A program made the position numbers and the translations under genes. Shown piece by piece: positions 2,732-56,029 of a stretch of DNA of 64,000 nucleotides (the stretch's first letter is position 1; each line of letters begins with the position of its first letter). The notes beneath the pieces are model-generated. The model was not told the origin of the DNA. It saw nothing but the letters and a program-made list of their open reading frames with translations, and ran no database searches. The DNA comes from Myxococcaceae bacterium. Its GTDB lineage: Bacteria; Myxococcota; UBA727; JABDBI01. The DNA lies in assembly GCA_016000045.1 (NCBI GenBank), contig JAECQY010000003.1, forward strand, positions 91 to 64,090, read 5' to 3'.

Positions 2732-3952
2732 TCAACAATGTTCTTGGCTTTTGGATCGAAGGCCAGCCCCAGCGCAGTTAAGTCTGCTGGCTAACTGTTG
2801 CCAAGGAGCAAAAGAGTCTTGCCGCGTCAGCATAGGCGCTAATACGCGGATCATCGATTGCGTGACTTCTTGGTTTGGAAATGCAAGTTGATAGAGGGCA
2901 CTTTCCGAGTCATAGTTCCGAATGGTTAAATAACCGGTTTGAAACAATAGCGTCGGGAGTTGAATCTGCTCAACATCAAAGGCTCCTAGGTCTTCGCTCG
3001 ATAACACAAGATTCTCTAAATCTAAGATAGGGTAGCTTTTCTCTTGAATGAGCTTAACGAGGAAACTGGGCGTGCCCGTTTGAGACCAGTAGTCTTCAAA
3101 CTGTCCTCGATTAAGGGCTTTTAAGACCGAGCAGGGGTTATAAACCTTCTTCTCGGAGTAAGGAGAAAATCGATAGCCATTGTACCACTCCTGCAATGTT
3201 AAGTAGAGTTTCTCCAAGGAGCATCGATGTTTATGGGCGACGGCTTGGATGTGCTCTGAGAAATAAAGCCTCAATTCTTCAGGCTCGATTCCCAAGAGTG
3301 TGGCTGCTTGTTCGCTTAGGGTTAAGTCTTCTAGGTTATTAATACCGGAAAAGATGGATGTTTTATTAAACTTGGTGACGCCAGTGAGAAAAACAAAGCG
3401 TAGATGGCAATCTAATGCTTTGATAACTCCATAAAAGGACTTCAGAATCGCTCGCATAGCCTCTGCAATGTGTGGACGGTCGATATGTGCGAGCATCGGC
3501 GCGTCGTATTCGTCGATCAACAGCACCACGGAGCTTTGGCTGGAAAGCGCCTCTATCAAAGTAGACAAACAAGCCGCAGGAGTTGCTGCAGAAGCGAGGC
3601 TGATATCGAGATTCTGCGCAATGCGTTCTAACTTTTGCAGGAGGTCTCTTTCAAAGCGCTCCGGAGTGCTCATGTCCATTTCGACCAGGCTGATGCGCAA
3701 GACGGGGTGTTTAGGCCAGCTGTAATCACTCTGGCTTATCCAAAGACCTTGAAACAGCTCTCGATTGCCTAAAAAAATTTGCTCTAAGGTTGAAATCAGT
3801 AAGGTTTTTCCAAAACGTCTGGGCCTTGAGAGAAAGAAATTTTCTCCTGAACCGGTTAGGAGATGATAAAGCTGCTTGGTCTTGTCAACGTAAACGCAGT
3901 TGTTTTTAATGAGTTTCGGAAAATCAGCCGTATTATCAGGAAGGCGCTTCAC
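2732..3952 (-). CDS. AAA-ATPase-like / PD-(D/E)XK nuclease family protein (DUF1703-type 'predicted AAA-ATPase')
   Basis: N-terminus MKRLPDNTADFPKLIKNNCVYVDKTKQLYHLL...FLSRPRRFGKTLLISTLEQIF matches the AAA-ATPase_like (PF09820-type) signature from memory. GTG start at 3952. The C-terminal tail runs into the repeat at 2797-2866. Confidence 0.8.
   Translation of the reverse strand: MKRLPDNTADFPKLIKNNCVYVDKTKQLYHLLTGSGENFFLSRPRRFGKTLLISTLEQIFLGNRELFQGLWISQSDYSWPKHPVLRISLVEMDMSTPERFERDLLQKLERIAQNLDISLASAATPAACLSTLIEALSSQSSVVLLIDEYDAPMLAHIDRPHIAEAMRAILKSFYGVIKALDCHLRFVFLTGVTKFNKTSIFSGINNLEDLTLSEQAATLLGIEPEELRLYFSEHIQAVAHKHRCSLEKLYLTLQEWYNGYRFSPYSEKKVYNPCSVLKALNRGQFEDYWSQTGTPSFLVKLIQEKSYPILDLENLVLSSEDLGAFDVEQIQLPTLLFQTGYLTIRNYDSESALYQLAFPNQEVTQSMIRVLAPMLTRQDSFAPWQQLASRLNCAGAGLRSKSQEHC
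2797..2866. repeat. ~65-70-bp direct repeat, copy A (inside the 3' end of the AAA-ATPase-like gene)
   Basis: gttgccaaggagcaaaagagtcttgccgcgtcagcataggcgcta... Nearly identical over ~45 nt to 4002-4066. Encodes TQSMIRVLAPMLTRQDSFAPWQQ on the minus strand. Confidence 0.75.
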
Positions 3953-5723: not shown

Positions 5724-6616
5724 ACAATAAATTAGTGCTTTGTTTTTTGCTGCTCAATCACTTTGGATTCGCTGGATATTTCCACGAAACGAATGTATCC
5801 GATACGGTAGCCAATGAAGCACTAATTCGATTGATTTCGAATAAAACACTTCCTGAGAAAGAGCAGAAAGGATTGATGTCAGTAGGTCTTCATGCGCTGT
5901 TGCAATACCTTTCGCCACAGATTCAAGCGATGCCTGATTACGTCGGTCGATTTCGGGCGAACTGCTCGCTTTTTATGAACTTTCGTATCGAAAAAGTGTC
6001 CTGCGATGTGACATGGACTTGGGCTGAAATGAAAGCCATTGGCTATAACTTGAGTGCGAATTTTCATTTGCCTTCGGAATACCTGGAACAGATCCGACAA
6101 AGCGATATTATGCTGGTCAATATTGATGCGGATTGGAGTGGCAAAACGACAGCTTACTCGGAACAATATGCGTTGGGTCAATTTACTCGAACACTGCCTT
6201 GCGCATTGACAGCGAGTGTGACGGGGCCCTCTGAAACTACGACTGAATGGCTCAGTTCGAGCAAAAGCCAAAACTCCTCTCAAACACCGAGTGAAAGTTT
6301 AAGCAAATCATGGGATTTCAGCGCAACAACCTTTATTTCGCGTTCCAAAACCGCCAGCAGAATTTTGACGAACTCAAACGCGAGCTTAAGTCTAGGCTGT
6401 AGCAATAGTGTCACCGATACCGCTTCTGAAACCTTCGTCAGCAGTTTTAGTACAACTCCAAGTTTCACTCAAATCCAAGCTACCGGCTCACCTTCCAGGT
6501 CAACGTTGTTTGCTCGTCTCAGCTTGACTTTGCTAAATTCTGAAAGCTTAAGCCAGAGTGACTTGCAGACTGGATCACATAGTTTCACTAACTGTACAAA
6601 TACTACGTGCCGGTAG
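5720..6616 (+). CDS. secreted protein of the window's paralogous family: conserved N-domain plus Ser/Thr-rich tail, no DUF1566 module
   Basis: Signal peptide MNNKLVLCFLLLNHFGFAG. N-domain aligns with 29329..31308 and 53519..56029 (LSPQIQAMPDYVGRFRANCSLFMNFRIEKVSCDV ... DWSGKT ... TLPCALTAS). TTG start overlaps the upstream stop. Confidence 0.65.
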   Translation: MNNKLVLCFLLLNHFGFAGYFHETNVSDTVANEALIRLISNKTLPEKEQKGLMSVGLHALLQYLSPQIQAMPDYVGRFRANCSLFMNFRIEKVSCDVTWTWAEMKAIGYNLSANFHLPSEYLEQIRQSDIMLVNIDADWSGKTTAYSEQYALGQFTRTLPCALTASVTGPSETTTEWLSSSKSQNSSQTPSESLSKSWDFSATTFISRSKTASRILTNSNASLSLGCSNSVTDTASETFVSSFSTTPSFTQIQATGSPSRSTLFARLSLTLLNSESLSQSDLQTGSHSFTNCTNTTCR

Positions 6617-9534: not shown

Positions 9535-10188
9535 TTATTTTATTATGGAACATTTAATTTGATTCAAGTCGATATTTTTATATCGCTTCAGGACTCTGCC
9601 GCCAAAATTGTCTTGAACCGCGAGACAGAGGGTTTGATCTTCCAAGCTGCAATTGACGAGTGAAAGATTTGATTTCAACAGTGCTCGATGGCATTCGTTT
9701 TGAGGAACGAACGTAGGAGGAAGCCTGCCCGCCAGGCTCTCTATCGTTACAATGCGTGTCAATAGATCAATCGATTCGTGTTTAAGCTTCACACAGCGAA
9801 TCGAATCATGGAGTTCAAAAGATCCATGAGACCAAAGATCGGAGATATTGGCAAAATGAGCAGCAGTATCCAAACACAATGCAGCCTTGGAACTCTTGCA
9901 TTCAATCAGGTACCTCTCGGTGGCCAATGGGTATGTCGCTGGCAAGCGGCAGTATTGAGAATCTAATTCAACCGGATTGCTTCGAAGCAATTCTTCATGA
10001 GTGAGGATCTGCTCTCTGAGAGAGGCTTTGGCTTCCCGAGCATGGCGGACATCCTTCAAGAACATCATGGTTTGCTCATGATTGCTTGAATCCCGGATTT
10101 TTTTAATCCGATCGAACATGGGCTCAGCCATGAGATTTCCCACCGCTAAGTAGAATAAGATTCCAAACAATCGTTGCTTAGCCTGCAT
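9535..10188 (-). CDS. hypothetical Cys-containing protein
   Basis: 217-aa ORF in the operon; no recognisable family. Confidence 0.45.
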   Translation of the reverse strand: MQAKQRLFGILFYLAVGNLMAEPMFDRIKKIRDSSNHEQTMMFLKDVRHAREAKASLREQILTHEELLRSNPVELDSQYCRLPATYPLATERYLIECKSSKAALCLDTAAHFANISDLWSHGSFELHDSIRCVKLKHESIDLLTRIVTIESLAGRLPPTFVPQNECHRALLKSNLSLVNCSLEDQTLCLAVQDNFGGRVLKRYKNIDLNQIKCSIIK

Positions 10189-27377: not shown

Positions 27378-29234
27378 TTAAGCTCCTTGTTCGAGCCAGT
27401 TCTGGAATGCATCAAAACGATAGGGTCTTCCTAAGAAATCTTGAACCAGCTCTGCAGCGTCCTTAGAACCTCCTGCTTCTAAAATCAACTGACGATAGCG
27501 TTTAGCTTGTTGCTTATCCATTAAGCCATTCGCTTCGAAAGCGCTCAAAAAATCTTTTGAGATAACTTTTGACCACATGTACGTGTAATACATGGCCGAG
27601 TAGTCTACCAAATGCCCAAAACTCATGGGCATATAGGTATCCGCCATCGGAGCAAAGTCCGAATATTTTGCCTGCAATTTGCTGAAAGTATCCATCGGCT
27701 CGAAAGACTCAGGATGCTGCCAATAGTATTGAAGACTCAGCTCTGCCAACATCATTTGCCGCTTCGTATCGATGCCTTTTCCAAATTCGTCAGCGGATCG
27801 CATTTTACTCACCAAATCGCTTGGAATCTGAGAAAAGGTCTGCAGCACTTCAGGATTCCAAGCCCATTCTTCAAAAAACTGAGAAGGTGCTTCCACAAAA
27901 TCCCATTCGGTGGATACGCCTGAAAAATGAATGTAAGGCTGGTTGCCTCCTAGGATATGGTGCATCAAATGCCCAAATTCGTGAAAGAAAGTAACGACCT
28001 GATCGTGATCCATTAAGTCTGTCGAAAAATTACATGCCAGAGCGCCAATAGGAAGCTGCTTGCCTTTAACGCCATTTTGAATGGTGAACTGAGCCGCGTG
28101 TTTGAACTTATTATCTCGAGGATGCAAATCCAAGTAAATCTCTCCCAACGCTCGATTTCCTCGGCTTACTTGGTAAACTTCAACGGATGGATGCCATACT
28201 TCAGGCTGCTTGACTCGCTCAAAACGAAGTTCAAAAAGCTGAGCACTTAAATCCAAGAGTCCATCGCGAACTTTGGGGAAGCTGAAATAAGATCGAACTT
28301 TTTGCGAATCTACCTGATAACGAGCTTTTCGAATTTTCTCTTCCAGGTAGGCTTTTTCATAGGGGTACACTTCGGTTGCGCTCGGATCCCGTTGACGCTT
28401 TTGAGCCAACAAGTCTGCGTATTCTTTTTTAGCTCCCATGGAAGCAATGGCAGAGATTTTATGAATGAAATCAGATGCATTTTGGCTTGTTTTCATCATT
28501 TTATCTTCAATGACATACTCTGCGAAACTAGGATAACCCAACAGCTGTGCAAGCTCATAACGCTTCTGAATAAGCTGTTTTAAAATAGCGACATTTTTGG
28601 GGTAGCCACGTTGATTTAGCTGAAGGTAGAGTTCTTTTCGAGCGTTTGCGTCCTCCGCGTAGGTCATGAACGGGATCGAGTCGGGATAATCCGTGCTAAT
28701 CGTCACTTTTCCGTTTGCCTGAACCGGATGCGAAGCGACAAAATCCGAAGGTAGGCCTTTTAAATGCGCGTGCGAGATTTCAATCGAGCGTTTGTCCTCT
28801 CGGATATTGCGTGCAAACTCTTGCCCGATCAGGGTCAATTGCTCTTCAAGTACTTTGATTTTCGCTCTTGTGGCCGAGTCTTGATTCACTCCTGAGCGTT
28901 TGAAGTTTTGGAGAATTTTGTCCAAAAGCCGTTTGGAGTCGCTTTTAAGGGAATGAGGTTTTAAAGCTGCAAATCGATCGTAGAGCGCGCGATCAAGCGA
29001 AAGATTCGTGATAAATTGGCTGGCTTGTTGCTCACACCGCTCGGCTTCTTCTCGAACTTTTTGGCTAGGGTGAACTTGAGAGAGCAGGCCAGGCAATGAA
29101 CTCATCGCATCCAGATGAACTTCAAGCTGATTGTATAGATTCAACGGATTCTTGGCACCCGAAACAATTTTTGCTCGAAGAGCTTCTGCTTTTTTTTGCT
29201 CGGTCTGGCACCGTACTTCTAGATTTTCAAACAT
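27378..29234 (-). CDS. M3-family zinc metallopeptidase (oligopeptidase A / Dcp / thimet-like)
   Basis: FFHEFGHLMHHIL (HExxH) with downstream E. ~618 aa typical of M3. Confidence 0.85.
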   Translation of the reverse strand: MFENLEVRCQTEQKKAEALRAKIVSGAKNPLNLYNQLEVHLDAMSSLPGLLSQVHPSQKVREEAERCEQQASQFITNLSLDRALYDRFAALKPHSLKSDSKRLLDKILQNFKRSGVNQDSATRAKIKVLEEQLTLIGQEFARNIREDKRSIEISHAHLKGLPSDFVASHPVQANGKVTISTDYPDSIPFMTYAEDANARKELYLQLNQRGYPKNVAILKQLIQKRYELAQLLGYPSFAEYVIEDKMMKTSQNASDFIHKISAIASMGAKKEYADLLAQKRQRDPSATEVYPYEKAYLEEKIRKARYQVDSQKVRSYFSFPKVRDGLLDLSAQLFELRFERVKQPEVWHPSVEVYQVSRGNRALGEIYLDLHPRDNKFKHAAQFTIQNGVKGKQLPIGALACNFSTDLMDHDQVVTFFHEFGHLMHHILGGNQPYIHFSGVSTEWDFVEAPSQFFEEWAWNPEVLQTFSQIPSDLVSKMRSADEFGKGIDTKRQMMLAELSLQYYWQHPESFEPMDTFSKLQAKYSDFAPMADTYMPMSFGHLVDYSAMYYTYMWSKVISKDFLSAFEANGLMDKQQAKRYRQLILEAGGSKDAAELVQDFLGRPYRFDAFQNWLEQGA

Positions 29235-29421
29235 GTTCTTTTCTCCTCCTTAGCCTAAGGAATCTCTTTTACGGCAAGGGATTGGTTTACAAACATCCTA
29301 ACATTTTTTAGAAGGTTTAGGTACCCAAGTGAGCCCTTTCCAATCTCAAACGCCCTTAACTCGAACAAGCTCTGGAGAAGTAAAGAGTGCTAGGGTGGAC
29401 TGGGTTCTGAAGAGGAGAAAA

Positions 29422-31308
29422 ATGGTTTCTAGATGTCTGCTGGTTGCTTGTTTGGGAGCTCTGGCTGTTTCGAGTTTAGCCGGTATGGTGAATTTGACTT
29501 CCGTGGACGCTGCTACCTCGGCTTCTTGGGTGCAGCTGTTTGAAAATCGTTTGCTCACTCGAGCGGATGCCCAAGCTTTATCATTGAGCGGCATCCGAGG
29601 AGTTTTAGAGGCCTTAGCGCCTCAAATCAAAGCGCAGCCCGGTTACACGGGGATCTTTATCGCAAATTGCTCGCTGTACGTGAATACGATTCTCGAACGA
29701 GTGAGTTGCAATATCAGTTCTCCAGAAGCGGCGGTGCTAAGCGTGGCCCCTCTTTTGACGAATCAGACGCGTTTGCCTTGGGACTACGCCTACGAAATTA
29801 CGCGGAGTCACATTGTGCTGGTGAATGCATGGGTAGACTGGACGGGTCGATTGGCGTTGTATGACGAAGACTATGCGATTGCGGCCTACCCACGAATCGC
29901 GACCTGCAGTGCATCGATCACGCATACGGAGACAAACCCGAGCCTGACGGAGGCTCCGAGCGCTTCGCTCACCCAAAGCCACCGTGTAAGCGAATCGCTG
30001 AGCCCGAGTAGAAGTCCGAGTCTTTCACCAAGTGTTTCCGGTACACGAACTCTTGAACCGATTTTGACGCGAACGGAAAGCGACGATGGGAGCATGAGCG
30101 ACACGAACAGTCGAAGCCAGATCCTCAGCGCGAGCCCGAGTCTTTCACCAAGTGTTTCCGGTACACGAACTCTTGAACCGACTTTGACGCGAACGGAAAG
30201 CGACGATGGGAGCATGAGTGACACGAACAGTCGAAGCCAGACCCTCAGCGCGAGTCCGAGTCCTGAGCCCAGTCGATCATCGACCCAGACCGGCAGCTGC
30301 GCCAAGACGTTGAGCAGCAGCTCAAGTCTCAGCCTTTCGCCGAACCTTAGTTGGACAGAATCCGCCACTCCCAGCGAAGATCCAAGTTCCAGTGTAACTC
30401 TATACAATGGTCTCTTTGCCGCCTGGCATCGAAGTACCGGAGTCTATGCGGATGGCACGAGCCAACCGACTCGCTATTCGACGAGCAACGGCGTGGTAAC
30501 GGATGCTCTAACAGGCTTGCAATGGCAACTAAGTCCAAGTGCGTCCGTGATGAGTTGGGGCAATGGGGTCTCTTCCTGCGCGGCTGCTTCTACCGGAGGC
30601 TATTCGGATTGGAGGCTTCCGAATAACGTGGAGTTACTCACCTTGGTGGACTATACGATTGCTTCTACAGGCTCGACGCCTGGAATCAACGCGGTGTTTT
30701 CGGGGACTCCTTTGAACTATTTTTACACATCGACGCCTTTAGTAGGTTCTGCCAGCAAAAATCCATGGTGGGTGAGCTTTGGCCAGAATGCTTGTTATTC
30801 GGGTTTTCTGGAGAGCTTGGAATATAACCCGAGTTGTACGCCTGCGGTAGCTTCTCAGGGTTACGTTCGTTGTGTTCGATCGCCTTCAGAGGCACCTCTT
30901 CCTTTGAACCGATATACGATTGAAAGTGGCGCGGCATTAGGGACGGTGACCGATCAGGTCACGGGTTTGATTTGGCAGAAGGTAGCGCCTACCAGCGGGG
31001 GTCCGAATGGTAACGGGCTTTATACTCAATCGCAGGCTATCGCCTACTGCAGCAGTCTGAATCTAGGCGGTTCTGGAGCGGGAACGTGGCGCTTACCAAC
31101 AAACCGAGAGCTACAAACGCTGGTGGATTACAGCAAGGCCTATGGAAGCTTGATGATGGATACGACGGTGTTTTCGGGGGAACCGGCGAGCGGGTTTTGG
31201 TCGTCTCTGGTTGAATCCGCGTCCCGCGAATGGGGTGTACATTTCGGTGTTGGCCTTGTCTACACGAGTTACTTTACTAATACTTACTTTGTCCGTTGTG
31301 TGCGTTGA
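29422..31308 (+). CDS. secreted family member: conserved N-domain, Ser/Thr-rich linker with 2 x 40-aa exact repeats, two C-terminal DUF1566 modules
   Basis: Signal peptide MVSRCLLVACLGALAVSSLAG (AGGAG SD before ATG 29422; the track ORF starts at 29329). N-domain PQIKAQPGYTGIFIANCSLYVNTILERVSCNI...DWTGR. DUF1566 units WRLPNNVELLTLVDY...VRCVR and WRLPTNRELQTLVDY...VRCVR. Confidence 0.8.
   Translation: MVSRCLLVACLGALAVSSLAGMVNLTSVDAATSASWVQLFENRLLTRADAQALSLSGIRGVLEALAPQIKAQPGYTGIFIANCSLYVNTILERVSCNISSPEAAVLSVAPLLTNQTRLPWDYAYEITRSHIVLVNAWVDWTGRLALYDEDYAIAAYPRIATCSASITHTETNPSLTEAPSASLTQSHRVSESLSPSRSPSLSPSVSGTRTLEPILTRTESDDGSMSDTNSRSQILSASPSLSPSVSGTRTLEPTLTRTESDDGSMSDTNSRSQTLSASPSPEPSRSSTQTGSCAKTLSSSSSLSLSPNLSWTESATPSEDPSSSVTLYNGLFAAWHRSTGVYADGTSQPTRYSTSNGVVTDALTGLQWQLSPSASVMSWGNGVSSCAAASTGGYSDWRLPNNVELLTLVDYTIASTGSTPGINAVFSGTPLNYFYTSTPLVGSASKNPWWVSFGQNACYSGFLESLEYNPSCTPAVASQGYVRCVRSPSEAPLPLNRYTIESGAALGTVTDQVTGLIWQKVAPTSGGPNGNGLYTQSQAIAYCSSLNLGGSGAGTWRLPTNRELQTLVDYSKAYGSLMMDTTVFSGEPASGFWSSLVESASREWGVHFGVGLVYTSYFTNTYFVRCVR
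30015..30255. repeat. Intragenic tandem repeat, 2 x 120 bp (about 97% identical)
   Basis: gtccgagtctttcaccaagtgtttccggtacacgaactcttgaaccg... is repeated head-to-tail. Encodes SPSLSPSVSGTRTLEP(I/T)LTRTESDDGSMSDTNSRSQ(I/T)LSA twice. Confidence 0.85.
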
Positions 31309-31406
31309 AAACGGGGATTTTAACCGATTAAGCCTGCATGAGCATTGATAGATGTCGCGACTACATCCTTTAGCGGCCCTTCCGGATACCTATTTGTCAG
31401 CTATGA

Positions 31407-32627
31407 TTGACAAAAATAAAATTGTCTTGTACGATCGACAGCGTGTTAAGCGAAATAGATTTGATGGAAATTTTAAATGATTGGAGCTTTTGGGAAAAAG
31501 CGCCTTCTACAGCCGATGTGCATCGAGATGTCGAACTACCCAAAAGTTTATCCGCAGATTTGGTATTAATTATCCAAGGGGTACGCCGTGGAGGTAAATC
31601 GACTTTACTGCAGCAAATACCAGCTCACTACCAGTTTAGTTTAGCAAACTGCTATTATTGCAATTTTGAAGATCCGCGTCTTATCAATTGTTTGAACCAC
31701 GAACTACTGGGAGATATTGTACGAATCGCCCGGAAAGATAGACCCACCAACGAGCCATGCTATTTCTTCTTTGATGAGATCCAACATGTGTTTGCCTGGG
31801 AAAAATGGCTGCACATGCAGCTAGAAAGGCCAAAGCATAATTACTTTGTTGTCACAGGTTCAAGTTCTGTATTGCTCAGTGGGGAGTTTGATTCAGCTCT
31901 TACAGGGCGTCACAGAACACTCCAATTATATCCATTTTCGTTTAGGGAATATTTAAAATTGTTTCCAGAGCGAATGCTTGAGTCTTATTTGATGAGCGGA
32001 GGATTTCCTAGGACACTGACTCATGGTGAGCCCAAACTCTTGTTGCAGGAATATTTTAATGACATCCTTTTAAGAGATGTATTAAGGCGTGTTGGAGCTC
32101 GATCTGTTGATCCGATTAAACAAGTTGCTAAATTGGCGTTTGATACTTGTGGGTCACAATTAAGCTACAGAAAAATCGCTGCCATCACTCATTTAACTGT
32201 AGAAACGGTTCAAAACCATCTGTTGGCTTGTGAACAGGCTTATCTACTATTTAATTGTTCTTTTTTTGCATTCTCGGAAAAGAAACGTTTGAGCCGCCAT
32301 AAAAAATTCTACCCCATTGATCCTGGTCTACGAACTGCAGTCACCAGCAACACAAGTCGTGATTACGGCAAAGCACTCGAGCAGCTTGTCTTTTTGAAAT
32401 TAAAACAACAGTGTGATCAGGTGTACTACTGGGAATCGCCTTTGGGAGGCGAAGTGGATTTTGTTACGGTCTCTGGAGATACAATCACGCCTTATCAAGT
32501 CACCTGGCAGGAAGCGAAGCCCAGGCACGAGAAAGCACTGGGTAGCTTCTATGAATCATTTCCACAGGCGAACGAAGCCATAATCATTCAGCAACAGAAT
32601 GCGGCTGACTTTCTATTAGGTCCTTAG
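31407..32627 (+). CDS. AAA+ ATPase of the AAA_14/DUF4143 type
   Basis: Walker A GVRRGGKSTLLQQI. Walker B FFFDEIQ. C-terminal region typical of DUF4143 ATP-binding proteins (from memory). Confidence 0.7.
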   Translation: MTKIKLSCTIDSVLSEIDLMEILNDWSFWEKAPSTADVHRDVELPKSLSADLVLIIQGVRRGGKSTLLQQIPAHYQFSLANCYYCNFEDPRLINCLNHELLGDIVRIARKDRPTNEPCYFFFDEIQHVFAWEKWLHMQLERPKHNYFVVTGSSSVLLSGEFDSALTGRHRTLQLYPFSFREYLKLFPERMLESYLMSGGFPRTLTHGEPKLLLQEYFNDILLRDVLRRVGARSVDPIKQVAKLAFDTCGSQLSYRKIAAITHLTVETVQNHLLACEQAYLLFNCSFFAFSEKKRLSRHKKFYPIDPGLRTAVTSNTSRDYGKALEQLVFLKLKQQCDQVYYWESPLGGEVDFVTVSGDTITPYQVTWQEAKPRHEKALGSFYESFPQANEAIIIQQQNAADFLLGP

Positions 32628-32639
32628 ATACTGAAAAAA

Positions 32640-32800
32640 ACGAACCAACCGTGTTTTTACCCGTAAACCGCACACCATTATCTGTCAGAATCGTGTGGAT
32701 TTTGTAAGGCACCGTGTTGAACTGGGCTTGCATGCTGGTGAGCGCGAATGTAACTTCCATCGATGAGTACCTACTCCGGAAAAATGCCTCCCAGAGCTCT
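32640..32800 (-). pseudogene. Remnant of a DDE (rve/IS481-IS3-like) transposase catalytic core
   Basis: Minus-strand translation ...SSMEVTFALTSMQAQFNTVPYKIHTILTDNGVRFTGKN. This resembles the ...F...A...G..ver.mTDNGsef segment of rve integrase cores. No N-terminal part follows. Confidence 0.3.
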
Positions 32801-32919
32801 TTGGATACCCAATAAAGAGTTTCAATTTGTGAAACTATATCAGTGACGCGGGATTTATCCAGGTATTGCTCAAGCCTGTTTACGCCTGTAGAAACTAATT
32901 GATTTTATGAGGTATCGCA

Positions 32920-34629
32920 ATGAATCTACGAAATGTGATGTTGGTAGGATTTCACCTGGTATTTTGTTTGACCCAGGCTCAAGCTCAGTCGTCTGTATTT
33001 TTGGGAGCCACTCATCTTTTTAGGCCATGGGATGGCTACCAGGCGATTGCCAAGTCCATTACAGATTCTGTTAGACAGACTCATGATATTGAGAAAGAAG
33101 CGAGGACTAGAAAACCATACCGCGATCTTTTCAAAAAACCTCAATCTGAGCTCGAAAGGTTGATTGCCCTAAGAGGAGATCGAATCACTGATCTGTGTAG
33201 TAGGCTTCAAGACAGAAGACGTACGATTCAATCGCCAGAGAATCTTAAGCTAGGCGAATCAGACAATTATGTGAGCCTGCTGTTAGAGCTGGCGCGGCTT
33301 TTGGATCCCAGTCAATGGCGTGGATTACTTGTTTATGCAGCAAGCAGTACAGGGCATTTCCTCGGAGTCTTGGAGAATCCTGGCGATGATCTGAGGCCGG
33401 TTCCCATATCAACACAAATTCCTATGCCTGGCTTACTTGAAGCTCCGGGCTTACAAGAGCAAGGCTGCGGCGGACATCTGTGGGCAGAGGAGTCTGATAG
33501 CGGACGAGTGGTTCATGCGAATAGTGCAGACAAGCGGAAAAGGTATGTTTGTTTGGGGTGTCGTGAGCGTCTGATTTTTCGTAACGGTGAGGTCAATCGA
33601 GCACATTTTGCCCATCGTGGTGGTAGTTCGTGTGGCGGAGGGGCTCTTGAAACCTTTGCACATCGATTGGCAAAGCAGTACTTATCAGAGAATTTAGATA
33701 GGTGGCGATTTATTGAGCAATGCAGTGAATGCTCAGACCCACTGGGGGTTAGACAGTTTTCAAGTTTACAGGGCTTTTCTGCCCAAGAAGAGCGTTCTGT
33801 GGAACACCGGAAGATTGTTGATGTGATGGTGACTAAAAATGGGAAAGAGCATACCGCTTTGGAGGTCCATCATACGCATGCGGTTGACGCGGAAAAGTCA
33901 AACTTTCTGACCGAAAGAGGGATTACTTTAATTGAAGTCAACGCAACAGATGTGCTTAATGGATTCAACAACAACTCATTTACTGTGCGTTTTGATTCAA
34001 CCGAAATCTGTCTCAAGTGTGAACAACGTAAGTGCAGACCCTGCAAGCAGTGCAATAAAGGGTTCCTTAAGACTGAATTGCATGAAATTGCCCCTGGCTC
34101 AGATTCTGAGTATCGATCAGATTTTGTGTGTGTGAGTTGCCGCGGAGAATGTCCTTGTTGCGGCGAGGGGATGACTAAAGATGATTTGAAACGTTGGAGG
34201 CGATGCTATGACTGCAATCAAAAGCGCAAAAGAGCGAGAGAAGAAGTGGATGCGACACTAAGAGCACAAAAAGTTCAGTTGGAAGAAGATGAATTAAATT
34301 TGCGTCGCAGGGTTACACTTGAAGAAAAACAGCGATTTGACAGTATTTCATATGAATTTAAGAAGCCAGAAAGAGAAAGAAAACACCAGCAAGAGATTGA
34401 AAATCAAGCCAAGCGAATATTAGCTCAAAATCGGGTTAATCTTTCCGCGCAGTTTCGTGAAAAAGAAGATGTTAAAGCGATCAAAGCTGGAGCGCGGTGG
34501 GATCCAGAGAAGAAGACTTGGTATTGCCCAGTAGCCAGTATGAAGGCTTACGAGCGCTGGTTACAGCATCTCGACAGAGAAGTAGTGTCCAAGATTGAGG
34601 AACTGATTGCCAAAAGACAGACGAGGTAG
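32920..34629 (+). CDS. CoiA-like nuclease-family protein with signal peptide, Zn-ribbon cluster, coiled coil and C-terminal GARWD..KxWY module
   Basis: MNLRNVMLVGFHLVFCLTQAQAQ signal. YVCLGCRERLIFRNGEVNRAHFAHRGG (CxxC...HFAH as in competence protein CoiA). VDVMVTKNGKEHTALEVHHTH...ERGITLIEVNA. CLKCEQRKCRPCKQC and CVSCRGECPCCG. Charged coiled coil. Terminal KAIKAGARWDPEKKTWYCP. Confidence 0.6.
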   Translation: MNLRNVMLVGFHLVFCLTQAQAQSSVFLGATHLFRPWDGYQAIAKSITDSVRQTHDIEKEARTRKPYRDLFKKPQSELERLIALRGDRITDLCSRLQDRRRTIQSPENLKLGESDNYVSLLLELARLLDPSQWRGLLVYAASSTGHFLGVLENPGDDLRPVPISTQIPMPGLLEAPGLQEQGCGGHLWAEESDSGRVVHANSADKRKRYVCLGCRERLIFRNGEVNRAHFAHRGGSSCGGGALETFAHRLAKQYLSENLDRWRFIEQCSECSDPLGVRQFSSLQGFSAQEERSVEHRKIVDVMVTKNGKEHTALEVHHTHAVDAEKSNFLTERGITLIEVNATDVLNGFNNNSFTVRFDSTEICLKCEQRKCRPCKQCNKGFLKTELHEIAPGSDSEYRSDFVCVSCRGECPCCGEGMTKDDLKRWRRCYDCNQKRKRAREEVDATLRAQKVQLEEDELNLRRRVTLEEKQRFDSISYEFKKPERERKHQQEIENQAKRILAQNRVNLSAQFREKEDVKAIKAGARWDPEKKTWYCPVASMKAYERWLQHLDREVVSKIEELIAKRQTR

Positions 34630-34784
34630 TTGTATAGATGGTATCGGCCCCAATATCAGAGACCCATGAACAGCCAGACACAATCTGCTGGACTAAACAG
34701 GTGCTTTAATCTGAATAAAAGGGGGCGCTCCTTTGGAAAAGTTTCTTTTATTCCGCCAGTCTCATACGTGTTCGGACCTACTCA

Positions 34785-34826
34785 TCCCCAATTTTAGGCA
34801 AACTCAAATTGAGGACACGCCCTAGG
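34785..34826. repeat. Conserved ~40-bp intergenic element with CTCAAATTGAG palindrome; copy 2 (about 35-75 nt upstream of cdnL)
   Basis: ccccaattttagGcaaactcaaattgaggacacGccctag; see 927-966. Confidence 0.6.
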
Positions 34827-34859: not shown

Positions 34860-35348
34860 ATGATCAAGTTTAATGTAGGGGATAAAGTGGTCTACCCCGC
34901 GCATGGGGTTGCTGAGGTTATCAGCATCGAGGTCAGAGAGATGGGAGGGGATCCGCAAACCTTCTATGTCTTGAGCATTCTAGAGAACTCGATGCGGGTC
35001 ATGGTTCCGACTCCGAACGTTGATCAGGTTGGCATGCGCGAAATTGTGTCCAGCCAAGAAGCGGATCAGGTTTTCGAGATTCTTAGAAAACGTGAAAAAG
35101 TTGTTGAATCGACGACTTGGAATCGAAGGCATCGAGAATACCTTGAAAAGATTAAATCGGGTTCCATCTTTGAAGTCGCTAAAGTCTTACGAGACTTGTA
35201 CGTTTTGAGGGGAGATAAAGAACTCAGTTTTGGAGAGCGAAAAATTTTAGATACGGCCCGATCTTTATTGGTTCGAGAGCTCAGTTTATCGAAAGGAATT
35301 TCGCATGAGGAAGTGGAAACTAAGTTTCGGTCGATTTTTCGCTGTTAG
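34860..35348 (+). CDS. cdnL: CarD-family transcriptional regulator CdnL
   Basis: MIKFNVGDKVVYPAHGVAEVISIE... RNAP-interacting N-domain; ~162 aa. The track ORF starts at 34809. Confidence 0.85.
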   Translation: MIKFNVGDKVVYPAHGVAEVISIEVREMGGDPQTFYVLSILENSMRVMVPTPNVDQVGMREIVSSQEADQVFEILRKREKVVESTTWNRRHREYLEKIKSGSIFEVAKVLRDLYVLRGDKELSFGERKILDTARSLLVRELSLSKGISHEEVETKFRSIFRC

Positions 35349-35796
35349 CTTTTTAGCGGCTGGCTTGAGTTGGCTTTTATGGGACCGTGTTCCGAGCCTT
35401 GTTTATTTTTTTAACGGACATCCTACACAAATTGAAGGTGTTCTGGGGAATCGAGCAGGGGAGGTCTCCGGGTTTTTACCCGGCACCTTCTGGCTGGGTC
35501 CTATTGAAATTCGAAATGTTCTTGGGCAACCGTATTTTGTGGCAACCCAAAAGCCGCTGCAGCCATTTACACAAATAAAGCTCCACGGGCGCTTGGTTGA
35601 TTTTGGCGAAGAAAGTCAATTTCGAACCGTTCGTCGCTTTTTTATTGAACGACTGGGCATGATAATCCCTGAGGGCGCTCAGCTCCTGCTGGTAGGAGAA
35701 GAACCCATGCAGCAGTGGCGTTACCCTATGCTATTTGGTCTGGCGTTTTTGGTTTTTGGGGTTGTTCTGATTCGCAATCTTTCAAAGCATTCTTGA
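35305..35796 (+). CDS. questionable hypothetical membrane-protein ORF
   Basis: 163-aa ORF overlapping the cdnL 3' end. Its C-terminal hydrophobic stretch is antisense to the tatA helix. May be spurious. Confidence 0.25.
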   Translation: MRKWKLSFGRFFAVSFLAAGLSWLLWDRVPSLVYFFNGHPTQIEGVLGNRAGEVSGFLPGTFWLGPIEIRNVLGQPYFVATQKPLQPFTQIKLHGRLVDFGEESQFRTVRRFFIERLGMIIPEGAQLLLVGEEPMQQWRYPMLFGLAFLVFGVVLIRNLSKHS

Positions 35797-35911
35797 AATT
35801 TCGAATGGCGCTACCAAGTCCTGTTGCAATCCCGGGTAGACGTTTTCCTCCAAATAGGAGAAGAACGATCGCAAATACCAGCATGAGTTCCCATGGGCCA
35901 ACACCAAACAT
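35726..35911 (-). CDS. tatA: twin-arginine translocase subunit TatA/E
   Basis: MFGVGPWELMLVFAIVLLLFGGKRLPGIATGLGSAIRNFKNAL is the canonical TatA TM helix plus amphipathic-helix signature. ATG 35911; a GTG 6 nt upstream is also possible. Confidence 0.8.
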   Translation of the reverse strand: MFGVGPWELMLVFAIVLLLFGGKRLPGIATGLGSAIRNFKNALKDCESEQPQKPKTPDQIA

Positions 35912-36662
35912 TTTCACCCCTTTAGACCTCGACTCAGAAGTCTTGCTCGCGCACGCTTTTCGTTGTGACAGGCTGGGCCTGCGGATGGCTTTGGCAGATT
36001 ATCAAAATTTTGTAAAGCGCAGACAAACAGGAGAACCTGTGGCCTATATCACAGGGCATCGTGAATTCTACGGTTATGATTTTGAGGTCACGCCGGACGT
36101 TTTAATCCCGAGACCCGATACCGAGCTGCTGGTTGAAGCTGCACTCAAGCGTTTGCCAACCGATCGACCTTTACGCGTCATTGATGTTTGCACAGGCTCG
36201 GGTTGCGTAGGCATCGCTTTGGCACGAGAGCGTCCCAATCTCTCCGTGGTAGCCATTGATCTCAGTGCTGAGGCCGCTCAGGTAGCTCAACGTAATGCGC
36301 TTCGCCATCAGGTAGCACATCGAGTAGAAGTACGAGTAGGAAATTTACTGGATCCCGTTTTGGGCGAAGGGCCTTCATTTGACCTCTTGGTTGCGAATCC
36401 TCCTTATATTAAACCCGAAGCTTATCCTGTCTTAATGCCCGAAGTTCTAAATTTTGAGCCCCAAATGGCCTTGCTTGGTATGGGAGCCGAAGGTTTGGGG
36501 CATCATGAGCAAATCCTCCAGAAAGCTTGCAAGGTATTAAAAAAAGGCGCTTTTGTTTTGATGGAAATCGGGTACGATCAAGGCCCATTTTTTGAAGGTA
36601 TTGGTAAAGTTATGCAAGATCTTGCTGGGCAAGATCGGGTTGTGGAGATAGTCTGTGGATAA
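35883..36662 (+). CDS. prmC: release factor glutamine N5-methyltransferase PrmC (HemK)
   Basis: VLIPRPDTELLVE, VIDVCTGSGCVGIALA, LLVANPPYI (NPPY). Start MSSHGP at 35883 would overlap the tatA start region antisense by ~30 nt; true start may differ. 8-nt overlap with murA. Confidence 0.75.
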   Translation: MSSHGPTPNIFTPLDLDSEVLLAHAFRCDRLGLRMALADYQNFVKRRQTGEPVAYITGHREFYGYDFEVTPDVLIPRPDTELLVEAALKRLPTDRPLRVIDVCTGSGCVGIALARERPNLSVVAIDLSAEAAQVAQRNALRHQVAHRVEVRVGNLLDPVLGEGPSFDLLVANPPYIKPEAYPVLMPEVLNFEPQMALLGMGAEGLGHHEQILQKACKVLKKGAFVLMEIGYDQGPFFEGIGKVMQDLAGQDRVVEIVCG

Positions 36663-53518: not shown

Positions 53519-56029
53519 TCAACGCACGCAGCGGACATAGTTCGCGCTGCTGATGCCATACGTGTTGACGCTGCCACCACCGAAATTCACGCTCCACGCA
53601 ACGGACGGGGGCGTGCAAGAATAAGGCGTTGATGTCCAAAACCAACTCTGAGGCGTGCTTGGAAAAGCCGTCGTGTTCATTGTTGGACCCGGAGATGCTA
53701 CGCGAACATCCAGAAGCGTCGACAATTCTTTGACATTGGGAAGACGCCAGCTCAAACCGTCCAGATTCAAACCCGCACAATAAGCCTGTGCAGAACTCCA
53801 GTTATAGGTTCCAGAAACCGTTCGCTGCCAAATCAAGCCCGTTACGGTGTCCAGAACCTGCGTGCTATTAAAGGTATAACGATCTACCTCTCGAACCGCC
53901 GATGAGGGTCGCACACAACGCGTAAAGCCGTTCGCAGGCACTGAAGAACAACCGCTATAACCCTGGCTGCAAACGAGGCCTGCGTAATACGCACCGCTAC
54001 CGTAACTCACCCACCAAGCACTGCCCGGGTAACCCTGCAAAGCGTCGGAGGACCAATAGTAACTGCTGGTTTGAGTGCCTGGAAAAAAATCCAGATCCAC
54101 GCTGGGACCAGCGCAATCTATCGTATAATCCACCAAGGTCTGAAGTTCCACGTGCGTGGGCAAACGCCAGTCCCCAAAACCAGACTCAAACAGATTAGCA
54201 CAATAAGCTTGGGCAGCTGTCCAATTGCCTGCAGGCGCATTCCCTACCTTTTGCCACTGCAGACTCGTCATTTGATCCGTGACAATCCCCGGAACGGATT
54301 CAAGGTAGCGGCCCGTTTGATTGGCGTTGTCTCGATAGACACCCGTTGTCACTTGCCAATTCGCCCACTCGGGATTGTAAACCTGAGGAGAACGCACACA
54401 ACGGACACAGTACGTAACACTGATGAGATACGTGCCGACGCTGCCATAACCGAAATCCACGCCCCACGCACCGGACGAGGGTGCACACGAATAAAGCATT
54501 GATGTCCAAAATATGTTCTGCGGTGTACTCGGAAAAGCCGTCGTATTGATCGTCGAACCCGGGTACGCCACATGAATATCCAGAAGCGTCGACAATTCTT
54601 TGACATTGGGAAGGCGCCAGGGCAAACCATCCAGGTTTAAACCCGCACAATAAGCCTGTGCCGAACTCCAGTTATAGGTTCCGGAAACCGTTCGTTGCCA
54701 AATCAAGCCCGTCACCGTGTCTAACACCTGTGTACTGTTAAAGGTATAACGATCCACCTCTCGAACCGCCGACAAGGGTCGCACACAACGCGTAAAGCCA
54801 CTCGCAGGCACTGAAGAACAACCACCATAACCCTGGCTGCAAACGAGTCCCGCGCCATAGGCACCGCTGCCGTAACTTACCCACCAAGCACTGCCCGGGT
54901 AACCCTGTAAAGCGTCGGAGGACCAATAGTAACTGCTGGTTTGAGTGCCTGGGAAAAAATTCAGATCCAGGCAGGGGCCAGCGCAATCCATCGTGTAATC
55001 GACCAAGGTCTGAAGTTCCACGTGTGTGGGCAAACGCCAGTCCCCAAACCCAGACTCAAGCAAATCAGCGCAATAGGCCTGGGCAGCCGTCCAATTGCTA
55101 GCAGGTGCACTCCCTACCTTTTGCCACTGCAAACCTGTCATCCGATCCGTGATAACCCCTGGAACGGATTCAAGATAGCGGCCCGTTTGATTGGCGTTGT
55201 CTCGATAGACACCGGTTGTCACTTGCCAATTCGCCCACTCGGGATTCCAAATCACCGGAGCGCTTGGGCTTTCGGTAGGACTCAAGGTTTGGGAATACGA
55301 CAAACTTCCGCTCGTCTCAGACGCACTGAGAGTCCTGCTTGAGCTTCTCGTGGCCGACTCCACATCGCTCAGCGTACGAGTACGCTTTTGACTCGGGCTT
55401 AAGCCCTCGGTGAAAGAAAGGCTGAGCGTATCCAGCAAACTCACAGTATTCCGAGAAGAGGCTTTGCTGAAGGTTTGGCTGAGCGTTGGTTTTGTTTGCG
55501 AAACACTCGCAGACGCGGTGCACGTTGGCATCCGATCGAACAAACGAACGGCATAAGACTCCGAGGACAGCGACGTCTTACCCGTCCAATCGGCGTAAAA
55601 ACTCACCAATAAAATCGCGCTTTCGGTAATTTGATGCTCATATTCCAAAGGAAGCCAGGAACTTTGTCCGCAGCACTCCGGTCTCCCCAAAGCGATCGTG
55701 GAGTTGATCTCACACAAAACGCGCTCGATGTGAGTGTTCATGAAAATGGAACAATTGGCCACAAATTGGCCCGTATAATCCGGCATCGCTTGAATCGCCG
55801 GAGTTAACTCGGCAAACAAAGCCTTCAATCCGGTCGAAAACAATTGTTTTTGCTGGGCGGCAGGCAATGTCTGGTTCGAAACGAGCTGCGTTAGTGCCTG
55901 ATTCGCCACGGCATTCGTTACCTGGCTTTGATTAAGCCAGGCAGCAACAGCGGCTTGCCCCCAAATGAAGAACACCCAAAGCCTTGCCGGCCTCAAGCAC
56001 CGTGCTTGGGTTTTTAGATTTTTCCTCAT
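53519..56029 (-). CDS. large secreted family member: conserved N-domain, S/T-rich linker, then a duplicated ~290-aa block holding four DUF1566 modules
   Basis: Signal peptide MRKNLKTQARCLRPARLWVFFIWGQAAVAA (cat at 56027-29). N-domain PAIQAMPDYTGQFVANCSIFMNTHIERVLCEI...DWTGKT. Repeated WRLPTHVELQTLVDY...FTRCVR and WRLPNVKELSTLLD...VRCVR. Confidence 0.8.
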   Translation of the reverse strand: MRKNLKTQARCLRPARLWVFFIWGQAAVAAWLNQSQVTNAVANQALTQLVSNQTLPAAQQKQLFSTGLKALFAELTPAIQAMPDYTGQFVANCSIFMNTHIERVLCEINSTIALGRPECCGQSSWLPLEYEHQITESAILLVSFYADWTGKTSLSSESYAVRLFDRMPTCTASASVSQTKPTLSQTFSKASSRNTVSLLDTLSLSFTEGLSPSQKRTRTLSDVESATRSSSRTLSASETSGSLSYSQTLSPTESPSAPVIWNPEWANWQVTTGVYRDNANQTGRYLESVPGVITDRMTGLQWQKVGSAPASNWTAAQAYCADLLESGFGDWRLPTHVELQTLVDYTMDCAGPCLDLNFFPGTQTSSYYWSSDALQGYPGSAWWVSYGSGAYGAGLVCSQGYGGCSSVPASGFTRCVRPLSAVREVDRYTFNSTQVLDTVTGLIWQRTVSGTYNWSSAQAYCAGLNLDGLPWRLPNVKELSTLLDIHVAYPGSTINTTAFPSTPQNIFWTSMLYSCAPSSGAWGVDFGYGSVGTYLISVTYCVRCVRSPQVYNPEWANWQVTTGVYRDNANQTGRYLESVPGIVTDQMTSLQWQKVGNAPAGNWTAAQAYCANLFESGFGDWRLPTHVELQTLVDYTIDCAGPSVDLDFFPGTQTSSYYWSSDALQGYPGSAWWVSYGSGAYYAGLVCSQGYSGCSSVPANGFTRCVRPSSAVREVDRYTFNSTQVLDTVTGLIWQRTVSGTYNWSSAQAYCAGLNLDGLSWRLPNVKELSTLLDVRVASPGPTMNTTAFPSTPQSWFWTSTPYSCTPPSVAWSVNFGGGSVNTYGISSANYVRCVR
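53522..55246. repeat. Intragenic tandem duplication, 2 x ~870 bp (about 90% identical)
   Basis: Unit starting aacgcacgcagcggacatag at 53522 recurs at 54392 (aacgcacacaacggacacag). Protein blocks NPEWANWQVTTGVYRDNANQTGRYLESVPG... repeat almost verbatim. Confidence 0.85.

Follow-up and report, generated by a model that had tools for sequence, protein, structure and literature searches.

A predicted nuclease with an export-type leader in a "Myxococcaceae" bacterium shares its domain architecture with giant-virus proteins

Within a 64,000-nucleotide stretch of contig JAECQY010000003.1 from a bacterium labelled Myxococcaceae (assembly GCA_016000045.1), here called the window, an insertion beside the cdnL gene was found to carry a gene for a multidomain protein of 569 amino acids (open reading frame, ORF, at 32920-34629, plus strand). 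We propose that this protein is an exported, metal-dependent DNA endonuclease that acts outside the cytoplasm and represents an undescribed family, and we put the probability of this reading at about 0.5. The protein combines a signal-peptide-like leader with a CoiA-type zinc finger, a predicted nuclease core, cysteine-rich ribbons, a long helix and a DUF5710 module, and from the finger onward this architecture is shared with proteins of giant viruses. An earlier note on this DNA had described the protein as CoiA-like, had placed it in one accessory segment with a DUF4143 ATPase gene and a transposase remnant, and had suggested a role in defense or in DNA uptake; the sharing with giant viruses was missed. 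An identical gene was found in assembly GCA_015999675.1 ("Myxococcaceae bacterium") and in one Logan assembly.

Pfam recognized a CoiA_N domain (PF25164) and a DUF5710 domain (PF18974) in the 569-amino-acid protein, both above cut-off, and gave no other match. An AlphaFold2 model built from 37 sequences had a mean predicted local distance difference test (pLDDT) score of 81, with values above 90 for residues 190-569 and poor values before residue 190. The protein opens with a Sec-type signal peptide pattern at residues 1-22 (MNLRNVMLVGFHLVFCLTQAQA, followed by Q; 32920-32985; this and all features of the protein lie on the plus strand), which a heuristic scan resolved into R4, a hydrophobic stretch at residues 6-17 and A20-Q-A22 before Q, with the cut after residue 22. 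This three-part leader was present in 13 of the 13 nearest homologues, all bacterial, and in the orthologue from GCA_037134495.1. It was absent from homologues of the nucleocytoplasmic large DNA virus (NCLDV) type, and more distant homologues begin directly at the first strand of the zinc finger. The signal-like leader reported in the earlier note is supported to the extent that this heuristic Sec-type pattern recurs across the nearest subfamily. A lipoprotein reading was rejected, as no lipobox precedes C16.

The leader is followed by a lineage-specific helical extension (residues 23-187; 32986-33480), which the model rendered as low-confidence helices. None of the 150 homologues listed by an exhaustive HMMER search covered the extension. 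The sole homologue found for it was the orthologue from GCA_037134495.1, in which it is conserved at 31% identity. A miscalled start, with M169 as the true first residue, was ruled out because conservation in the orthologue indicates that the extension is coding. The N-terminal region of ~190 residues that had been described as unknown is thus present as claimed, but can now be described as helical and as conserved in one orthologue.

The CoiA_N C2H2 zinc finger occupies residues 188-240 (33481-33639), with C211, C214, H229 and H232 as ligands, followed by C238. Pfam matched it over residues 203-238 (E = 2e-10, 40.5 bits against a cut-off of 26.3), and CoiA_N was matched by all 27 members of the family alignment. 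Directly after it lies a divergent PD-(D/E)xK-like nuclease core (residues 241-360; 33640-33999), delineated from the model, Foldseek and conservation. In the model, this core runs from a helix bearing E244, H248 and K252 through a cysteine hairpin (C268/C271) to strands at 286-294 (E291), 298-306 (D301) and 309-317 (E315), then to T319-H320, a helix with K326 and a final strand at 336-341 (E339). The resulting alpha-beta-beta-beta-alpha-beta order is that of PD-(D/E)xK nucleases, with D301 in beta2 and E315 in beta3, both at pLDDT above 90.

A cysteine-rich zinc-ribbon module was identified from the sequence at residues 361-432 (34000-34215), where the model places short strands at pLDDT above 90. 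Its cysteines (C364/C367, C372, C375/C378, C403/C406, C410/C412/C413 and C429/C432) belong to a module conserved in both the nearest subfamily and the NCLDV-type homologues. The ribbons lead into a charged helix of 74 residues (430-503; 34216-34428; assigned by DSSP from the model at pLDDT above 90), which may be a spacer or a coiled coil and varies in length and sequence between homologues. Both the ribbons and the helix had been claimed before and were found. The C-terminal DUF5710 module (residues 505-549, AGARWDPEKKTWYCP; 34432-34566) matched its profile over positions 1-44 of 44 (E = 4.1e-9, 36.4 bits against 26.5), and the same region also matched PHROG 12580 (2.4e-5). The motifs quoted in the earlier note (CxxC...HFAH, VDVMV, ALEVHHTH, IEVNA and GARWD..KTWY) are all present, and those of catalytic type are nearly invariant among 84 homologues.

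Exhaustive HMMER searching recovered 1,749 relatives, 142 of them at E<1e-10. The listed relatives match residues ~188-445 only, with a few also matching the C terminus, and in nearly all of them the conserved region begins at residue 10-30. Other searches returned little: a word-indexed search with the full protein returned nothing beyond the query and a single weak match, probably because coiled-coil words swamped the candidates, and a profile search with the trimmed core gave 8 matches only. A sequence search of the PDB gave nothing relevant, and a metagenome scan with the 569-amino-acid protein gave DUF5710-level matches only. Conservation was counted in an 84-member alignment of the core with ~30% mean identity. 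C211, H232, K252 and E315 were invariant (84/84); C214, E244, H248, D301 (83), K326 (82), E339, E291 and H229 were conserved in 81-83 members, and H320 in 77. The window protein retains every conserved zinc and catalytic-type residue. Because it keeps all residues conserved in 77-84 of the 84 homologues, the protein looks catalytically competent, as judged from its sequence.

When the model was compared with the PDB by Foldseek, the best matches were the Vsr-like protein NGO0050 (3hrl; probability 1.0, template modeling score 0.63 on the target), EndoMS/NucS, the VRR-NUC protein 4qbn, TnsA and Can2, at 13-16% sequence identity; every one of them has a fold of the restriction-endonuclease-like kind. 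The element order in the model and these top matches support the predicted nuclease fold claimed in the earlier note. With these PD-(D/E)XK nucleases the protein has the core fold in common, but its (D/E)xK lysine is out of place. Among predicted viral structures (BFVD), the strongest matches were EsV-1-12 of Ectocarpus siliculosus virus 1 (4e-14), Hyperionvirus proteins (2.7e-4 and 2.9e-3) and a phage "Competence protein" (2.7e-5); VRR-NUC proteins, and phage DUF5710 proteins matching the tail, were also listed.

Three parts make up CoiA: a C2H2 finger, a PD-(D/E)XK core in which beta2 carries an Asp and beta3 a Glu, and a C-terminal region. This structure-specific endonuclease acts at junctions between single- and double-stranded DNA, resolves the D-loop formed in transformation and occurs in the Bacillota only (bioRxiv 10.1101/2024.02.06.579203). 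The comparison used a Bacillus subtilis CoiA sequence, which Pfam confirmed as a full CoiA (CoiA_N, 1e-14; CoiA_nuc, 1.1e-52; CoiA_C, 2e-61). The two proteins share a C2H2 finger and, immediately after it, an alpha-beta-beta-beta-alpha-beta core that has an Asp in beta2, a Glu in beta3 and the same motif order, and the first nuclease helix (E-S/T-x-x-H-x-x-x-K) aligns. By hhalign, a profile of the 569-amino-acid family reached 96% probability against CoiA only over the finger and this first helix (E-S-x-x-H-x-x-x-K). When the beta-core was aligned alone, the motifs paired (E/E, RPDVM/IVDVM, AVEYQ/ALEVH and GI/GI), but at E=0.02 and 2% probability. CoiA_nuc (PF06054) was matched neither by the 569-amino-acid protein (E<=0.1) nor by the 27 family members (E<=1). 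CoiA_C (PF25166) was likewise not matched, and the corresponding region holds the zinc ribbons, the helix and DUF5710 instead. The protein further differs from CoiA in an extra cysteine hairpin within the core and in having E-V-x-x-T-H...K instead of E-I-Q-x-S. It adds the Sec-type leader, the extension, the ribbons, the long helix and DUF5710, comes from outside the Bacillota and has no competence context. The CoiA-like description in the earlier note thus holds for the zinc finger and the PD-(D/E)xK fold, but not for membership in the CoiA nuclease family. The proteins thus form a sister or derived family, outside CoiA as currently defined, whose chemistry is probably like that of CoiA.

Plasmid and phage proteins annotated as "CoiA family" by RefSeq/PGAP or by their depositors also match the core (tblastn, 97% coverage, ~31% identity, E 1e-12; hhalign, 97.8%). 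Examples are WP_004578771 of Marinobacter pD15-8W, WP_259213751 of Massilia and NVP1042O_78 of Vibrio phage 1.042.O. These proteins have the same finger and core as the window protein, but they are 220-470 amino acids long and leaderless, have no or different C-terminal modules, lack DUF5710 and are more distant in the tree. The plasmid "CoiA family" proteins and the phage IPR010330 protein were tried as bridges to PF06054 and ruled out, as they match CoiA_N only. The label "competence protein CoiA family" on three plasmid loci (L092, L093 and L094) and one phage locus (L095) rests on the zinc finger alone, and this name is probably misleading for the whole plasmid and phage group.

In the closest leaderless homologue, P0018, finger, core, ribbons, coil and DUF5710 (GATWDPEKRKWYA) come in the same order, and the P0018 gene adjoins an NCLDV major capsid protein gene. 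Two further homologues of this type lie on ORFan-rich contigs: P0039 on one of 341 kb with a ubiquitin E2 gene and a GC content of 63%, and P0017 on one with a GC content of 27%. By comparison, the gene for the leader-bearing P0152 stands on a 1.25-Mb contig beside rpsF, rplI, groES and fabH, in the metagenome-assembled genome (MAG) that also contains L007, which is related to the window organism. In a rough neighbor-joining tree, drawn without support values, the leader-bearing proteins group together with the NCLDV-type proteins as their neighbors and the plasmid proteins further off. The full finger-core-ribbons-coil-DUF5710 architecture is common to a bacterial lineage and to giant viruses. 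EsV-1-12 was the best structural match overall. The giant-virus proteins (EsV-1-12, Hyperionvirus and P0018) differ from the window protein in lacking a signal peptide and the 165-residue N-terminal extension, and many carry a tail resembling the PIP box, the motif that binds proliferating cell nuclear antigen (PCNA). Our literature search turned up no work on giant-virus proteins resembling CoiA.

Among 151 family members, 14 had [ILM]-x-x-[FY]-F in a basic tail within their last 15 residues, where 0.49 would be expected (P=2e-16); KKQRITNFFKANN, KKRCITDFFGAKN and, in canonical form, QRTLREFFGTKK illustrate it. These PIP-like tails are found in both viral-type and leader-bearing bacterial members, including P0004, P0006, P0009, P0011-P0015, P0017, P0026, P0033, P0039 and P0047, and a basic stretch resembling a nuclear localization signal (NLS) precedes the motif in those C termini. 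The window protein has no PIP tail (it ends ...EELIAKRQTR), and no relic of one was found past its stop codon. Contigs with nuclease or ATPase homologues (L088/L089, carrying P0005, as well as L091 and L106) were rich in ORFans and in eukaryote-like repeat proteins; P0005 itself carries Sel1 repeats at its C terminus as a fusion, with Ank-repeat genes nearby. These Sel1 and Ank neighborhoods, along with the Legionellales and Coxiellaceae relatives of the ATPase described below, are circumstantial pointers to a protist-associated gene pool.

The DUF5710 module matched 109 plasmid records by tblastn, 81 of them conjugative. Its carriers include ArdC-like "zincin-like metallopeptidases", LPD1 polyvalent proteins, stand-alone DUF5710 proteins and a phage SNF2 helicase. 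The statement in the earlier note that this C-terminal motif occurs in assorted plasmid and DNA-processing proteins was borne out by these carriers and by the Pfam match. All DUF5710 proteins have in common a module of ~45 residues with the signature G-A-R-W-D...K-x-W-Y, which here is fused to a CoiA_N-type nuclease after a long helix. No data on DUF5710 function were found in the literature; the one paper that mentions the module gives no functional data.

The orthologue from GCA_037134495.1 (L085 1665-3379; also L086 and L087) switches frame within an A-rich stretch (AAGAAAAAGAAAGG) that immediately precedes the zinc finger. Three independent assemblies show exactly the same switch, which marks either a true pseudogene or a slippery site and does not stem from faulty assembly. 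Beside this locus, both subunits of topoisomerase VI are encoded (Topo-VIb_trans and TP6A_N/Topo_VI_alpha; L085 5781-8598), an archaeal- and eukaryotic-type enzyme that is uncommon in bacteria.

The domain content, the fold class, the residue conservation, the leader pattern across the subfamily, the insertion, the lack of gene linkage and the architecture in common with giant viruses are all observed; that the protein is exported, that it cuts DNA, what it cuts and which role it plays are what we infer in the following scheme. The leader would take the 569-amino-acid protein across the inner membrane by the Sec pathway, and the zinc finger, cysteine ribbons and DUF5710 would hold DNA or a DNA-bound partner. 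An acidic center formed by E291, D301 and E315, with H320 and K326, would bind a divalent metal and cut the phosphodiester backbone; the nearly invariant K326, in the helix that follows, may substitute for the canonical lysine. By analogy with CoiA, the substrate would probably be structured or branched DNA, and the 74-residue helix may space or dimerize the two ends of the protein. The target would be DNA outside the cytoplasm, whether periplasmic, extracellular or that of prey or host. Several observations weigh against this scheme. The core matches no Pfam nuclease model, and position 317, two residues after E315, is variable (H/F/R/Y/L/K), so that the (D/E)xK lysine is not conserved. The Foldseek E-values against the PDB were weak (best 0.023), which we attribute to the multidomain query. 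The leader was identified heuristically and could be a membrane anchor, and Cys4 zinc ribbons would be out of the ordinary in a bacterial protein exported to the oxidizing periplasm. The leaderless viral homologues and the PIP-like tails imply an ancestral role on replicating intracellular DNA, and the frame switch in the orthologue may mean that selection on the extension-bearing form is weak.

A possible but doubtful alternative places the protein inside the cell, as a CoiA-like recombination or repair endonuclease that resolves or trims branched DNA, cytoplasmic or tethered to the inner membrane by an uncleaved N-terminal anchor and possibly active during uptake. The finger and PD-(D/E)xK-like core in CoiA order would suit such a role, as would the leaderless viral and plasmid homologues, which must act within cells, and the intracellular DNA-processing proteins that carry DUF5710 (ArdC-like, SNF2 helicase); a reducing compartment would also be kinder to zinc ribbons. 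However, the short h-region and the small residues at -3 and -1 are typical of cleaved signals, the leader was gained specifically in the bacterial subfamily, and neither CoiA_nuc nor CoiA_C is matched in a protein from outside the Bacillota, to which true CoiA is limited. No competence or recombination genes were adjacent in any context examined. Unlikely, in our estimate, is a host-directed effector, in which the leader-bearing subfamily would be secreted to act as a DNA-damaging or replication-interfering nucleomodulin in a protist nucleus, the gene having passed between the bacteria and giant viruses of that host. A Sec leader alone delivers nothing into a host, and the window, in which a look for lifestyle clues met only housekeeping genes, shows neither a dedicated secretion system nor a sign of a host-associated lifestyle. 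The window protein itself is without an NLS or PIP tail or a downstream relic, one source sample was a hydrocarbon enrichment culture, and the tree has no support values. In its favor are the NCLDV-encoded closest leaderless homologues (P0018, P0039 and P0017), the top viral fold matches to EsV-1-12 and Hyperionvirus, the excess of PIP-like tails and the NLS-like clusters kept by bacterial members, the Ank and Sel1 repeats in the neighborhoods and the Legionellales and Coxiellaceae relatives of the ATPase. Slightly less likely again is its specific form, in which secreted nuclease effectors arising from exchange with giant viruses would enter the protist nucleus, dock on PCNA or replication forks and cut DNA; the docking is proposed to proceed via the PIP-like tail, DUF5710 or both.

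It is improbable that the protein is a decaying or noncatalytic relic, either a DNA-binding protein devoid of nuclease activity or a gene becoming a pseudogene. For this reading, three independent assemblies carry a frameshift in the orthologue, the tail at the C terminus of relatives is gone from the window copy, and few copies of the gene turn up in metagenomes. On the other side, the window gene has an unbroken frame of 569 codons and lacks none of the conserved catalytic and zinc residues, residues 190-569 are modeled with confidence and the codon-position GC is normal for the genome. Least probable, and very much so, is a two-gene module against phages or mobile genetic elements, in which the DUF4143 ATPase would sense or supply power and the 569-amino-acid nuclease would execute. 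The two genes are adjacent on the same strand, the ATPase matches the PADLOC defense candidate PDC-S01, and the nuclease N terminus weakly matches that of DruB (6e-7, zinc-finger region only). In none of nine contexts of nuclease homologues (L083/84, L085-87, L088/89, L090, L091, L096/97, L098/99, the P0018 contig and L100) was the ATPase found, and neither of two contexts of ATPase relatives (L103-105 and L106/107) held the nuclease. With 0 of 11 contexts showing co-occurrence in this check, which the earlier note had called for, the reading as a defense system has no contextual support. In the window, 292 bp holding an opposite-strand transposase scrap separate the two genes, whose composition and apparent origin differ. 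PDC-S01 is moreover defined as a single-gene candidate with its own PD-(D/E)XK domain, and an exported nuclease could not cooperate with a cytoplasmic ATPase.

The exported endonuclease that we favor is encoded within an insertion of ~5.57 kb (window ~29256-34825), as judged from the empty junction of the M3 peptidase gene and cdnL in relatives. Related genomes were retrieved with CdnL as the query; the CdnL of L003 is 90% identical, and those of L004 and L005 are 83% identical. In all three, tblastn synteny placed the M3 peptidase gene head-to-head against cdnL, ~70 bp apart, compared with 5.57 kb in the window. DNA homology between the window and L003 ends at ~29256 and restarts at ~34826; therefore, the Lcl_C surface-protein gene also lies within the insertion. 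The inserted nature of the segment, as claimed earlier, was thus confirmed by an empty site in three relatives. Its position between a surface-protein gene and cdnL stood too, as did the identity of the flanks, where Pfam recognized an Lcl_C protein on the upstream side and a CarD/CdnL-type regulator on the downstream side, but the true insertion is larger and takes in the Lcl_C gene. The three ORFs were found at the coordinates given before: 31407-32627 (plus strand, 406 amino acids), 32584-32760 (minus strand, 58 amino acids) and 32920-34629 (plus strand, 569 amino acids). The insertion ends have no flanking direct repeats of >=14 nt, no tRNA lies near, and Rfam gave no match within the insertion. 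Promoter and terminator counts in the segment were at chance level, and the remainder of the window is chromosomal core, with genes for aminoacyl-tRNA synthetases, CTP synthase, MurA, ATP synthase and the Suf system.

Against the long ORFs of the window as reference (GC 0.477 +/- 0.025), the Lcl_C gene is a high outlier (0.534), the ATPase gene a low one (0.419), and the 569-amino-acid gene is within range (0.456). The compositional deviation that the earlier note had proposed to look for was present in the ATPase (GC 0.419; GC at third codon positions, 0.393) but not in the 569-amino-acid gene, which is normal in codon-position GC as well. Foreign signs in composition and taxonomy are confined to the ATPase; the 569-amino-acid gene has relatives elsewhere in related MAGs. 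Because the GC values of the genes diverge and the nearest named relatives of the ATPase come from another phylum, the insertion is a mosaic of at least three unrelated accessory genes, not a functional system. Most of the segment is ordinary (a common candidate-defense ATPase, a transposase scar and a surface-protein paralogue), and only the 569-amino-acid protein is of real interest.

The Lcl_C gene (29329-31308, plus strand; Pfam Lcl_C, 9.6e-46) encodes a surface or secreted protein of 659 amino acids. Lcl_C is the Legionella collagen-like C-terminal domain. The gene contains a perfect 120-nt tandem repeat at 30013-30252 that codes for a Ser/Pro-rich linker, and its GC is ~2 standard deviations over the window mean. 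Three paralogues lie elsewhere in the window (5732-6577, 53522-54382 and 54392-56023). Although it lies inside the insertion, the gene has no functional tie to the other genes there.

The identity of the ATPase as a DUF4143 protein was upheld by Pfam (AAA_14, 2.5e-31; DUF4143, 1.6e-20; both above the gathering score). Its gene lies at 31464-32627 on the plus strand, within an ORF open from TTG 31407. The annotation of the same contig by NCBI starts it at ATG 31464 (387 amino acids), which is probably the real start; the shorter protein is the more likely one because two promoter-like sites overlap TTG 31407. The protein matched PADLOC candidate PDC-S01 (PDLC04787) over its full length (1.6e-83, residues 44-396). 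DUF4143 has been classed as a PD-(D/E)XK domain (PMC3424549), and PDC-S01 is a single-gene ATPase-nuclease fusion with members in tens of thousands of genomes, which ranks fourth in frequency among predicted prokaryotic defense genes and is a candidate whose experimental validation is pending (PMC12988326). More than 1,100 strong homologues of the window ATPase were found. The nearest named ones come from MAGs of Legionellales, Coxiellaceae and other Gammaproteobacteria, a phylum other than that of the host, at 62-65% identity, and homologues stand alone in two other contexts (L103-105 and L106/107). The window protein is thus an ordinary member of this group in its full-length match, its single gene and its stand-alone position, and we take it to be a single-gene element of the widespread AAA_14+DUF4143 (PDC-S01) type that was acquired horizontally, stands by itself and has a putative defense role. 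A second accessory-type ATPase is encoded among housekeeping genes at window 2732-3952 on the minus strand (AAA-ATPase_like, PF09820, 2.8e-55).

The transposase remnant consists of ~27 residues (YKIHTILTDNGVRFTG; 32653-32733, minus strand) within the 58-amino-acid ORF at 32584-32760, of which residues 10-36 matched positions 178-204 of 284 in the IS481-family DDE transposase profile NF033577 of NCBIfam (E=8.2e-5). The match bears out the earlier recognition of a transposase scrap, at 22 bits against a cut-off of 224. In addition, tblastn gave weak matches to plasmid segments of the DDE/IS481 type, among them one annotated as an IS481 transposase. Neither flanking inverted repeats nor an intact transposase accompany the remnant, and no second copy was found in the window or in the loci compared. 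The scrap is a scar of past transposition and not an element.

At the upstream junction, the M3 peptidase ORF (minus strand) of the three relatives reaches ~17-20 codons further upstream than in the window (L003, ~9934-9995; L004; L005). The extra codons encode a signal- or lipoprotein-like leader, for example MRFLFFFATCLSLTAGEKA-M. The 5' end of the window gene falls at 29232-29260, and an in-frame TAA lies 6 codons upstream of its ATG at 29234. From these sequences, the insertion seems to have clipped the export signal off the M3 peptidase, which may have been relocated to the cytoplasm. At the downstream end, a conserved hypothetical gene of 163 amino acids (window 35305-35796) overlaps the end of cdnL and is also found in L003 and L006-L008, and the NCBI annotation places a TatA/B/E-type gene on the opposite strand (window 35726-35917, minus strand).

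The 569-amino-acid protein and its ~1,700 metagenomic relatives define a predicted nuclease family that annotation pipelines mislabel as "competence protein CoiA family", because Pfam recognizes only its zinc finger. Among PD-(D/E)XK nucleases with a CoiA finger, this protein stands out for its export-type signal and its giant-virus architecture. That the complete architecture occurs both in a bacterial lineage and in giant viruses clearly exemplifies cross-domain exchange of a predicted DNA-processing enzyme. The bacterial branch gained an export-type signal, and many of its members keep eukaryote-style PCNA-binding-like tails, a combination that no known system explains. DUF5710, a module of conjugative plasmids, here sits on a predicted nuclease and so offers a handle on its function. 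If the host-nucleus reading were true, these proteins would constitute a new class of bacterial nuclease "nucleomodulin" or genotoxin, and the uncultured lineage labelled "Myxococcaceae" would be marked as eukaryote-associated.

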